Source: an uncultured Desulfospira sp. (lineage in GTDB: Bacteria; Desulfobacterota; Desulfobacteria; Desulfobacterales; Desulfobacteraceae). From it: a stretch of DNA of 64,000 bases. Position numbers and translations under genes: made by a program. The stretch lies in contig OY760175.1 of the NCBI GenBank assembly GCA_963663165.1, positions 864,001-928,000 of the forward strand. Direction: 5' to 3'. A model generated the notes under the pieces. That model worked only from the letters and a program-made list of their open reading frames with translations. It made no database searches and was not told the origin of the DNA. The stretch's first letter is position 1. Every line of letters begins with the position of its first letter. Positions 10,496 through 62,995 of this stretch are shown here, piece after piece.

Positions 10496-10588
10496 TTATA
10501 TGAAAGTCTCATTAACATCCTGATAAGACTTTCATTATTCGTTGTGGGCGGTTCTTGGTTGGATAACCAAGGCGGCCCGTGGCCGGTA
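10496..10588 (-). repeat. ~91-bp dispersed three-hairpin repeat, copy A
   Basis: Near-identical to 20931-21023 and the 56893-57168 units. Confidence 0.9.
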
Positions 10589-20930: not shown

Positions 20931-21023
20931 TTATATGAAAGTCTCACTAACATCTTGAGAAGACTTTCATTATTTGTTGTGGGCGGTTCTTGGTTGGATA
21001 ACCAAGGCGGCCCGTGGCCGTTA
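20931..21023 (-). repeat. ~91-bp repeat, copy B
   Basis: Begins at the TAA stop of the flavoprotein gene. Confidence 0.9.
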
Positions 21024-37731: not shown

Positions 37732-37799
37732 ACAGATACAACAGATAAGAACTTGCTTTTTGACTCAAGAAGTATAGAAAAATATTGGAAGCTTGAAAT

Positions 37800-37855
37800 A
37801 TGCCCCCGCCGGGCCACAGGCACAACATGTTGTGCCTGTGGCCCGGCGGGGGCAT
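37800..37855. repeat. Perfect 56-bp palindrome with no loop
   Basis: ATGCCCCCGCCGGGCCACAGGCACAACA|TGTTGTGCCTGTGGCCCGGCGGGGGCAT. Confidence 0.95.
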
Positions 37856-38633
37856 TCGCCGAAAAAAGGGATGTCGCAGGACAGAGGTAAAAGAATAGCC
37901 TGTATCAGAAATCTCCAAAGCAAATATGAAAATTCCAAAATTTAAGCTGATTTTAAGCGCACCTCACCAGAAACCCCGCGTACAGAGAAAATCAATTCCA
38001 ATACTCAACTGCCGGGATCTGGGAGACTGAAAAGTCATAAACCAACTCAGGAATGGGATCAGAAATAACCGCCTGCGGTGGGTCATGGTTGTGGATATCC
38101 CATAAGCCCAGGTGCCGCAAAATCTTTTCGATAATATCAAGATCTTCGATAAAAGAAATAATTTTCATTTGGCCCTGACATTTTGGGCAAACCAAAGGAT
38201 CAATTTCATAAATTTTTTGGATTAATCTGGCCCAATTCTGCCTTGCTTCTTTTGAAGACATCTTATTTTGTATAATTGTCGGGATTGTGTTATCAGTTTC
38301 CGCCTTCTTTCTCATCCCCCTGGACTTGTTAGAAAAGTAACTATAGTAACGAACGGTATGCTCGTATCTTCCTGGAATATGTGTCACCAACCTGGCAAGC
38401 CAATCCAAAGCATTAAACATTTTTTGGGATTTTCCATCTTTGGCGGTATAAATGATTTTAGCAATACCATCATCAGATTTTTCGACCGGAATATAGACCA
38501 GTCTTTCCTGGGAGAAGCAGGCTCGAATGATATATCTTGCCAGGTTGCCAAGTCCGATTTTATCATCAGGCTCAATTCTGTCTCCGATATAAACTTTAAA
38601 TCCGGAATGATACCAGGAAAGCATGTTGTTCAA

Positions 38634-38652
38634 GTTTCTGCCCTTCAGGGTA
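38634..38652 (-). mobile_element. Hairpin micro-insertion
   Basis: TACCCTGAAGGGCAGAAAC. Confidence 0.75.
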
Positions 38653-38992
38653 TGATGGCATCATTTATTTTCCCCTCTTTCTTGAGCATTTTCAGCACCT
38701 CATACTGAAATGCTTCTTCCAGGTCTTCAAGCATAAATATCGGAGCAGTCTGAAAGCTGCCGTCTTTTAAGAAACAACCGTCTGAAACTATGGCGTGAAG
38801 ATGCGGATTGAAATTTAGAAAGTCGCCATAGGTCTGCACTGCAATACTGGCACCGGGAACAGCTTCTCCACCCGGGACCGTAGATTTCAGGTAAGCTGTA
38901 ATAACACTCCATGCACATTTGGAAAGTTTTGCCAGTAAAGTGCGGTCATAAAGAAAATAAATTCGTAACCGTTTAGGGATGCTGAAAACCCA

Positions 38993-39011
38993 GTTTCTGA
39001 CCTTTAGGTTA
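38993..39011 (-). mobile_element. Hairpin micro-insertion
   Basis: TAACCTAAAGGTCAGAAAC; removal restores YRQ-WVFS in frame. Confidence 0.85.
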
Positions 39012-39263
39012 TTGCCGGTATGGGACATCTTTTAAGACATTTGTCAGCAGCCATTCTCCATATTCGACAACCCTTTTCTGATGATAGGATGGGCAAAAAT
39101 GCCGGCGCTTGCAAGAAAATGCCAGAAGACACTCATGGCCACATTCTTCACAACGGACCCTGGCAAACCCCATATGAAGATCACCACAGTCGAGATATCT
39201 GTAAATTACAGTCATGACGTATGTTCGCCAATAGCCGTATCTGGATTTATACATATCATCCCA

Positions 39264-39281
39264 GTTTCTGCCCTCCGGGTA
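39264..39281 (-). mobile_element. Hairpin micro-insertion (in frame)
   Basis: TACCCGGAGGGCAGAAAC; removal gives ERV-WDDM. Confidence 0.85.
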
Positions 39282-39455
39282 CACCCGTTCCAACTCTTCA
39301 AAATGATTCTCAACACACTTGTAATATGCGCTTTCTTTGGGAGTACGCGGTTTGTAAACATCAAAATTACTTGTTGCCTGTTGGGCCATTACGCGCTTAT
39401 GTGTTAATTAGGTTTTCCAGGTGTATCAGGGTGGGCTTGGGATTGTTCAGGATGA

Positions 39456-39500
39456 GGGCAACTACTGGTTGTTGATGAAAACATACAATAATTGTTGAAT
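39456..39500 (+). other. attI-like site
   Basis: GGGCAACTACTGGTTGTTG...AAACATACAATAATT-GTTGAAT (GTTRRRY core) upstream of and divergent from the transposase. Confidence 0.4.
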
Positions 39501-39529
39501 AAACTAAACAAAAATAAAAATTGAAATCG

Positions 39530-39577
39530 CCCTAACAAAAAAATGCTGCGGATAAACCGCAGATTTTGACGTTCTGG
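39530..39577 (+). other. Compact attC-like site
   Basis: CCCTAAC-AAAAAAAT[G]CTGCGG-ATAAA-CCGCAG-ATTTTGAC-GTT: AAC/GTT boxes, unpaired central spacer, one extrahelical G. Confidence 0.65.
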
Positions 39578-40577
39578 GTGCGACACGAGGTCGCACTATT
39601 GGCTGTTTGCGGGCCTGTCGGTCCTGACCAAACCCGGCATTCTCCTGCCGGTACCCTATGTGGCATGCGGTTTCCGGTGCATCCGGAAACGGTGTGAAGC
39701 CCAACCGAAAACGTACCGAATTCCGCAATTGCGGAAGGGGTGGAAGCCGTGAGGCGGATATCCTCCTGGAAGCCTCAATCCGGTTGAGGGCAAGGGTTTG
39801 GATGATATGGTCAAATTAATTGAATGTTCCGTAAGTACCGTCACGGAGAGCAAGCTAAAGAGGCTGGTAAGCTTGGACCTAAAGGTGAGCGGTCAGGTTG
39901 CAGATTTCCGAACTACCGCGTGAGATGTTGCGCCGCCGGTGCTTAAGGGCAGGCCTAAGTCATCCACTAATTGGCAATAGTGTGGAACGTGGAAACCCCG
40001 TATCTTCGCCGGGAACATTCGGCAGGTGAAACCGTAAGGCACACTGATGAAGGTGCGGGAGTAAGATGCAGGAAAAAGCGAATGCCATCTTGTAATGAGG
40101 TGGATACGGATTGAGATGGATCTATTCTTCAACATTACCCGGCCCGAAAGGGAGCTGACGTCCGGCGGGTGTGGCTACAGACACACCCGGACAGGTGTTT
40201 CTTTGCGAGAAAGTCTGGAGAATCTTTGAAAATGGGAAAGCAAATGACGGCAATAGCTGGTGCGCCCATCAGCAGTTTATACTGTTAAAAGACTGTAGAT
40301 GCGTATCGCAAAGGTTGTTAGAGAAGCACACGACATGCACATCCAGAGGCATTTTCAAAAGACGTATGTTTTTTGACCAGAAAAAAAAGAACTGTACTTC
40401 CCTGGCGGATCATCAAAGAAGCATGCTATGGAATAACTGTAAATTTCATTATTGCTTAAACAACCGGGTGGCCCCGCAAGGCTTAGCCTTAGAAATGCTT
40501 GAGCCGTATGACGGGAAACTGTCACGTACGGTTCTGAGGGGGCTTGGGGCAGTTAAAACTGCCCCCGGCTACCCGAT
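39578..40577 (+). ncRNA. Group IIB intron ribozyme with deleted RT ORF
   Basis: 5' GTGCG; domain V GAGCCGTATGACGGGAAACTGTCACGTACGGTTC; domain VI ending CTACCCGAT; IEP relics MTAIAGAP (40244) and MRIAK (40299). Confidence 0.9.
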
Positions 40578-53122: not shown

Positions 53123-53200
53123 TAAACGGTCACGGACCGTCCCGGGTTATCCAACCAAGAACCGTCCTAAACGAATAATGAAAGTTTTTATAAGTAGTTA
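53123..53200 (+). repeat. ~91-bp repeat, degenerate copy C
   Basis: CGGTCACGGACCG..GGTTATCCAACCAAGAACCG..AATAATGAAAG. Confidence 0.8.
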
Positions 53201-56892: not shown

Positions 56893-57168
56893 TAACGGTC
56901 ACGGACCGTCTTTGGTTATCCAACCAAGAACCGGTCCACAACAAAAGATGGAAGTCTTTACGGGTAGTTAGTCAGACTTTCATATAACGGCCACGGGCCG
57001 TCTTGGTTATCCAACCAAGAACCGCCCACAACAAATAATGAAAGTCTTCTCAGGAGGTTAGTGAGACTTTCATATAAACAGCCACGGGCTGATTTGGTTA
57101 TCCAACCAAGATCCGCCCACAACAAATAATGAAAGTCCTCTCAAGATGTTAGTGAGACTTTCATATAA
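56893..57168 (+). repeat. Three tandem copies of the ~91-bp repeat
   Basis: Units start at 56893, 56985 and 57075; no spacers. Confidence 0.93.
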
Positions 57169-62889: not shown

Positions 62890-62995
62890 TAACGGCCATA
62901 CCCTAAAGGGCAGAAACCGGGCCGCCTTGGTTATCCAAGCGAGGCAGCCGGCAACAAAGATTAAAAGTCACCTTTGTTAAGGGACTTTCTCATAA
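62890..62995 (+). repeat. Divergent ~91-bp repeat (copy G) carrying a 19-bp micro-insertion
   Basis: TAACGGCCA[TACCCTAAAGGGCAGAAAC]CGGGCCGCCTTGGTTATCCAA. Confidence 0.85.

Follow-up and report, generated by a model that had tools for sequence, protein, structure and literature searches.

Can a hairpin of only 18-19 nt move from site to site as an element in its own right, and if so, by what means? The question is raised by a pseudogene of an IS91-family Y2 transposase (37992..39389, minus strand; pieces of Zn_Tnp_IS91 and Y2_Tnp, Pfam PF14319 and PF04986) lying in the window, that is, the whole stretch of 64,000 nucleotides of an uncultured Desulfospira sp. that was analysed, in which three such hairpins, here called units, have entered the gene. 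Unit 1 (39264..39281, minus strand) is an 18-nt variant with a 3-nt loop, a TACCC stem and a GAAAC tail, in frame at about codon 37 of the transposase; unit 2 (38993..39011, minus strand, 19 nt) joins a TAACC stem to a GAAAC tail at about codon 121, where its TAA forms an in-frame stop; and unit 3 (38634..38652, minus strand, 19 nt) has a TACCC stem and the GAAAC tail at about codon 234. Unit 4 (62899..62917, plus strand), of 19 nt and again with TACCC stem and GAAAC tail, has entered a ~90-bp repeat, family B, at the loop of its first hairpin, in a copy that extends over 62890..62985 on the plus strand (right end approximate). All four were found with the coordinates and orientation given in the preliminary description; a 19-nt pattern allowing up to 3 mismatches recovers three of them, against a chance mean of 0.09, and misses the 18-nt loop variant at 39264-39281, which was located separately. 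An Rfam search of the window placed no family on the units and returned two group II intron pieces only.

The IS91-type element to which the transposase belongs covers approximately 37744..39575 (minus strand), from a conserved downstream end at 37744 to a conserved upstream hairpin at about 39530-39575, ends for which the labels oriIS and terIS may be borrowed by analogy. Directly at the end of the upstream hairpin begins a group II intron of ~1 kb (about 39579-40577, plus strand; RF02012 and RF00029), which has no long reverse transcriptase (RT) frame and whose 5′ part has more than 10 related copies in the genome from which the window was taken (G000, 6.74 Mb).

That same genome holds an intact transposase paralogue of 446 aa (contig C1, about 4957950-4959290), 91% identical in DNA to the window copy and free of all three units, and when both are aligned, the window copy proves longer by exactly 18, 19 and 19 bases at the three sites, where the flanks are not duplicated. 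Thus the earlier proposals that removal of the units restores a frame of ~446 aa, that intact homologues would lack them, and that the target is not duplicated are borne out at exact junctions. The third unit had been given as possibly 20 nt, or as accompanied by a separate 1-nt indel, and it is the second of these that holds: the unit itself measures 19 nt, and the alignment with the paralogue places a one-base insertion at 38628 (minus strand), five bases beyond it, which is also present in an allele of another genome, G001 (locus L205). Empty alleles were likewise found in assembled contigs from four other studies, for site 38634 in all four runs, for 39264 in two and for 38993 in one; no relatives of the window transposase were found in viral contigs. 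As for the fourth unit, its repeat does show the empty site elsewhere, as had been said, in six copies within the window (chance mean 0.15): three in tandem at 56893..57091 (plus strand), where the empty site is visible, and further copies at 10573-10588, 21008-21023 and 53124-53139. Unit 4 is also found at the orthologous site of G001, with one stem change.

The complete unit is a sequence of 18-19 nt with fixed ends, which exists with two tails, GAAAC and CACG (the CACG unit being of 18 nt), and with two stems, TAACC and TACCC. Its loop is nearly fixed, T[A/G]AA, contrary to the initial impression that the loops vary. Read on the opposite strand, it consists of a foot (GTTTC or CGTG), a 5-bp stem with one G-T pair and a TT[T/C]A loop, in which the T, T and A are invariant and the third base is free. 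With a predicted energy of -0.3 to -1.3 kcal/mol the hairpin must be called weak, and shuffled sequences do as well. The stem covariation previously noted stands in that the arms match in 426 distinct copies as against 8 with mismatched arms, but it amounts to a single two-state split only. In G000 there is also a CRISPR-like array (C1, 5419800-5450500) whose 36-nt repeat starts with the last nine bases of the TAACC-type unit, a sharing that is probably a coincidence.

Units are far commoner than chance, as the preliminary description had supposed: 36 paired-arm matches were seen in G000 where an order-4 Markov model expects 0.16, and the 38 matches to a looser pattern are distributed among a ~130-bp inverted repeat, family A (16), family B (17), IS91 (3) and two mismatched-arm sequences that look like chance. 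Among 151 genomes of the family, which from the scan described below we take to be the Desulfobacteraceae, 42 carry the GAAAC-tail unit (the reverse-pattern control gave 1 match) and 37 the CACG-tail unit, of which G000 and G001 have no copies; some genomes carry one tail type only, so that the two types expand separately. Copy numbers reach 148 in G001 and 159 in G430, and are zero in G002, which belongs to the genus of G000. When all species genomes were scanned, the TAACC form was met in 101 stretches, of which the 80 with a title come from Desulfobacterales genera or loosely labelled MAGs; a few true copies occur in other families of the Desulfobacterales, and when a further 300 genomes of the phylum were searched with a looser pattern, the single matches numbered 7 and those of the control 8. 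Units were also found in phage contigs and in at least 125 metagenome stretches. Altogether, the loci that were fetched, a sample of all matches, contain 444 distinct sites in 166 site families.

The rule of insertion can be read in the flanks (tandem neighbours having been removed before counting). After the GAAAC tail, the 3′ flank is Y-D-R in 97 of 111 site families, and the 5′ flank is a purine in 99 of the 111; after the CACG tail, the 3′ flank is YAA in 39 of 44 families, a flank that follows GAAAC in 21/111. The YGGG flank first suggested from the window is therefore replaced by the more general Y-D-R. In other words, insertion takes place at R|YDR or at |YAA according to the tail, and the target is not duplicated, because the left end of the unit stays TAA or TAC whatever the flank. 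The TAA start is itself a target, and units therefore pile up head to tail in arrays of 2-4 with an exact 18-nt period: a unit is followed by a TAA-led unit in 20 cases and by an intact TAC-led unit in none, the lone exception (L644) being decayed. Units have also been inserted in the loop of an inverted copy, forming nests up to three deep; family B and these self-insertions are in loops, while over 102 site families hairpin-loop targeting in general is unsupported. A stop at the unit ends an open frame of 100 codons in 8 of 100 families of TAA-led units and in 0 of 48 TAC-led ones, and TAA-led units lie harmlessly on the stop codons of core and phage genes. In four viral contigs (L089, L448, L450, L452) units give phage structural genes their stop codon, once as a tandem pair. 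On IS91 they occupy both strands (19 sense, 17 antisense). The end of IS91 was considered as a possible end of the unit and rejected, the apparent YDR flank having vanished on comparing 30 homologous loci; at its downstream end IS91 has a 15-nt motif of its own, after which CYTT, CCT or TGT mostly follow.

A part of this abundance has been acquired in a passive way, by amplification within mobile repeats of larger size. In G000 the units within family A always have the TAACC stem and those within family B always the TACCC stem, and with looser matching the filled copies are 19 of 85 in family A and 16 of 245 in family B. When 58 filled sites of G001 were examined, 25 could be placed in G000, where by automatic label 16 lack the host repeat altogether, 4 are filled in both genomes and 5 have the host present but empty; checked by eye, one of the "absent" proved to be an empty host and one a decayed unit, and some of the five empty pairs differ in host subtype. 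Since most of the placed sites lack the host repeat in G000, the high counts in these two genomes are due mostly to hitch-hiking. The unit does not stop the host repeats of families A and B from moving, and the idea that it inactivates mobile DNA is thus correct for the IS91 reading frames, but not for the host repeats, which keep moving with the unit inside, nor for the core and phage genes whose stop codons receive TAA-led units without harm. Family B was not confirmed as a miniature IS110, its ends being absent from the flanks of the four PF02371 matches of G000. Other repeats of this kind were met: a dispersed repeat of G432, undescribed so far and no shorter than 70 bp, holds 17 of the 20 units of the genome at one site (L380-L398); family-B-like repeats of other genera (L400-L419; G430, G534, G536 and G500) contain TACCC units at two sites, often both in one copy; and an inverted pair of truncated family-B copies has both arms filled in G001 (L030) and both empty in G000 (C1, about 6365650-6365710).

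Coding sites offer a different picture. On local trees of IS91 alleles (limited to those covering 80% of a 210-nt interval; the alleles scored at site 121 include an inverted nest that really occupies a neighbouring position) the filled alleles are scattered among empty ones, the nearest empty allele being 84-99% identical to a filled one and the filled alleles differing from each other down to 68-78% identity. Eight IS91 positions are filled in at least two lineages (23 lineages in all, with <88% identity over 80 nt): the site of unit 1 is also filled in other IS91 lineages, that of unit 2 in three, every one with TAACC, and that of unit 3 in four, every one with TACCC. Each of the eight has a single stem type, and taking all the data 20 of the 21 site families with at least 3 distinct flanks are pure in this respect. 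Descent or conversion explains the purity in the mobile hosts; it does not obviously do so at the IS91 coding sites, because there the flanks differ up to the junction and are poor predictors of the stem (AUC 0.59-0.63). That each site should be locked to one stem type is the chief puzzle of the whole analysis. At several loci two hot spots are joined with one unit between them, and these are deletions between units. A further case is the stop codon of a ribosomal protein gene, which we take to be rplF: among the 30 orthologues that best match a filled query allele, 12 have 1-3 CACG units (11 by scripted scoring, the twelfth being a decayed copy), scattered on the tree and including one nearly identical sister pair, filled and empty, although slippage between the flanking TAA triplets or allele exchange could contribute here.

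The whole of this evidence, with exact junctions, 444 sites in 166 families and empty alleles in other contigs, makes it very likely that these 18-19 nt are a mobile element complete in itself, non-autonomous and inserting without target duplication, in agreement with the minimal unit originally postulated. Does it belong to a known class? The SDRs of the Nostocaceae reportedly measure 21-27 nt (Elhai et al. 2008), are found inside other repeats and their own copies, are said to show compensatory stem changes, and to be lineage-restricted with HIP1 targets; we know of no enzyme for them. The unit resembles them in nesting in itself, in being embedded in other repeats and in leaving no target duplication; it differs in its size of 18-19 nt, its phylum and its R|YDR and |YAA targets, and it adds filled and empty coding alleles, recurrent hot spots and a link of tail to target. 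To our knowledge, it is shorter than other such units and among the shortest mobile DNA described. The other close relation is with the group-3 REPs of Marinomonas, of which REP Mb, according to PMC8266576, is built of a GTAG foot, two further bases, a stem of 5 bp and a loop, ~20 nt altogether, needs T12, T13 and A15 of the loop with N14 free, is cleaved at another site when the foot is changed, and suffers in its cleavage from a stem mismatch. The unit shares the foot, the 5-bp stem and the TTNA loop, and, as PMC3733652 states for REP ends, it can supply stop codons; its stem, however, is imperfect and weak, with a G-T pair, and its foot is GTTTC or CGTG instead of GTAG (or CGTC). Unlike a REPIN, it occurs as singlets and head-to-tail tandems with sharp junctions, and not as an inverted doublet. 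The GTAG REPtrons of these genomes own different REPs; group-3-like RAYT genes with canonical GTAG REPs unrelated to the unit were seen in G000 (C1, about 1954200-1955000) and at L492/L495 (G497; two in tandem).

With the ends of IS200/IS605 and the PATEs, the unit has in common a CC-TT[T/C]A-GG tip, the lack of target duplication and a short one-sided target, but it is one hairpin instead of separate left and right hairpins, and has neither lower stem nor long form; the local IS200 elements, moreover, have ends and targets other than those of the unit. One of these, a 592-bp tnpA-only IS200 inserted after TTTAT, is present in G000 in three copies (C1, 804853-805444, 2721694-2722285 and 6219595-6220186), one of which interrupts a RAYT-like gene. 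Like the IS91 mini-elements, as described in PMC13181058, the unit makes no target duplication and has asymmetric ends; unlike them, it has no oriIS-like sequence and a different target, and IS91 is its victim. A MITE would have terminal inverted repeats and target duplication, whereas the unit has neither, its left end being TAA or TAC whatever the flank. On these features it cannot be placed among the SDRs, REPs, PATEs, IS91 mini-elements or MITEs, and a literature search, with most subscription journals outside its scope, gave no description of it; the statement that it was not described holds, within that search, for the unit itself, but not wholly for its class. In short, it behaves like the Nostoc SDRs, which are cited in PMC3116915 and PMC5861425, and is built like a single group-3 REP.

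With respect to the agent of movement, the asymmetric ends, the absence of duplication, the one-sided 3-nt target linked to the foot and the likeness of the loop make a Y1-type HUH enzyme the most likely mover, a proposal to which we would give about an even chance; the CC-TT[T/C]A-GG tip also caps the end hairpins of IS200/IS605 in these same genomes. Such an enzyme would act in trans on single-stranded DNA, and the unit would work on the strand of the foot, stem and TT[T/C]A loop as a substrate comparable with a single REP. Binding would be to the TTNA loop, with one cut following YHR in the target and another following the last bases of the unit, and the foot would help to select the site, like the guide tetranucleotides of IS200/IS605 and REPtron Mb. 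The preference for IS91 elements would come from their passage through single-stranded intermediates; in PMC13181058, IS91 is described as inserting via a single-stranded circle without target duplication.

Several facts count against a Y1-type enzyme. The two cuts implied would lie at the foot's first base and where the stem begins at its base, a geometry unlike that of the distant cuts in IS200/IS605 and REPs. The weak stem with its G-T pair would, by analogy with the harm that a stem mismatch does to the cleavage of REP Mb, be another, as are the presence of units on both IS91 strands, the lack of general loop targeting and the locking of stem type; and REP singlets were not seen excising in reads of P. 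fluorescens (PMC3116915). IS200/IS605 elements insert with a bias to the lagging strand; among the filled repeats of G000, copies that are mostly hitch-hikers, the leading and lagging counts are 10:9 and 9:7, without such a bias. Among the PF01797 loci fetched from 15 genomes (71 of them, with four stretches of G000 in addition) no RAYT gene is flanked by the unit as in the REPtrons, and only L053 and L488 have decayed units nearby; G432 (20 units) and G533 (16 units) gave no PF01797 match, a profile that a diverged RAYT-type enzyme could escape. The suggested co-occurrence with RAYT or TnpA genes thus yielded no cognate RAYT, TnpA or IS91 link. In 11 PF01541 (GIY-YIG) loci from five genomes, presumably small free-standing and UvrC-sized proteins, no unit and no flanking of the Ssn type was met; and, IS91 excepted, no recurrent neighbour gene pointing to an enzyme was found. 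A more tentative possibility, which we hold to be less probable, is that a single-strand recombinase not yet recognised has the single hairpin of 18-19 nt as its entire transposable element; in this hairpin the foot (4-5 nt) would program the target trinucleotide and the stem type would send TAACC and TACCC to different hot spots.

Other origins can be imagined. It is unlikely that an RT adds the unit to nicked DNA with a small RNA as template; the alignment of primer and template over three bases would then account for the tandems as well as for the YAA and YDR flanks. The one-sided 3-nt flank, with a degeneracy that fits wobble pairing, would agree with it, as would the sense orientation between co-directional genes (28 versus 7), the many sites in strongly expressed operons and phage structural genes (judging by gene names) and the arrays of 2-4 units; yet the TAA start, being itself a target, is enough to produce tandems, and the sense bias, obtained with crude ORF calls, is due to the CACG type (19:1), and stop codons and the A-richness of sense strands may lie behind it. 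Units are absent from all 16 RT loci of five unit-rich genomes, no intact units were seen in the RT and IS110 loci, and G000 contains no master copy, 36 of its 38 matches being in the two repeats or IS91 and 2 being chance-like.

That a few ancient insertions were spread by hitch-hiking, by short-patch conversion between alleles and by slippage, with little or no current jumping, seems to us improbable. In such a history one would understand the 16 of 25 resolved sites whose host repeat is missing altogether in G000, the differences of host subtype in some of the five empty pairs, the 20 of 21 families with a single stem type, and the TAA on both sides of the CACG units, which permits their precise loss or doubling by slippage; but it meets 166 unrelated site families, filled alleles in which the bases adjacent to the junction differ, with no common patch, filled coding alleles that are broken and yet each stand beside intact relatives, and units that are still intact in IS91 lineages of 68-78% identity. 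We find it likewise improbable that the IS91-type Y2 transposase moves the unit, preferentially near its own gene, even though no neighbour is met as often as IS91-like ORFs (23 of 270 loci), 31 of the 218 sites from two unbiased pattern scans fall within 150 nt of IS91-like sequence, and IS91 makes no target duplication (PMC13181058): its downstream end and its targets (CYTT, CCT, TGT) differ from YDR, the unit shares no sequence with it, 2 of 9 Y2 loci carry units, both inside or beside family-B-like repeats, and the unit-rich G500 and G530, both incomplete assemblies, gave no PF04986 match.

There is little probability that the unit is the footprint, or scar, of a longer insertion sequence, or of two, one for each stem type. 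Such an origin would account for the fixed ends and, if the parents had different targets, for a stem type fixed by site; however, tandems and nests contain whole units, no long element joins the junctions in G000, and the half-unit searches of 130 family genomes gave decayed units or chance coding matches among the ~100 loci read, these being a subset of the matches and metagenome assemblies being prone to lose IS copies; the longer elements with these ends once envisaged were found in neither. The sole half-unit match in multiple copies, of which G434 has 11, is part of the reading frame of a transposase. It belongs to a ~4-kb transposon of five ORFs in 11 near-identical copies (L701-L711), whose 562-aa ORF happens to hold the 14-nt core of the unit. 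Finally, an artefact of assembly or adaptors may be dismissed, given the 42 and 37 of 151 genomes, the metagenome stretches and phage contigs, the empty alleles in contigs of other studies, the target rule, the decayed copies and the persistence at orthologous sites.

The kind of element is already known, though unexplained, among the SDR- and REP-like repeats, and the question of how REP singlets and repeats of the SDR type are spread is decades old; what is new is an unusually good evidence of movement together with a directly testable rule from foot to target, but without an enzyme. The family of units offers exact filled and empty coding junctions, two natural foot variants with different targets and recurrent hot spots, to which sister genomes differing at single sites add value, and the question of the mover can be reduced to an oligonucleotide assay. 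Should a defined 18-19-mer prove to be inserted by an enzyme, scar-free and at a trinucleotide chosen by the foot, this would set a lower size limit for mobile DNA, and the same insertion could serve as a minimal tagging tool. For these sulfate reducers, many IS91-type genes are frameshifted because units have been inserted in them; and if the movement is indeed due to an unrecognised single-strand recombinase, they would harbour about the smallest programmable mobile DNA known, one whose TAA start lands on stop codons and leaves the genes unharmed.
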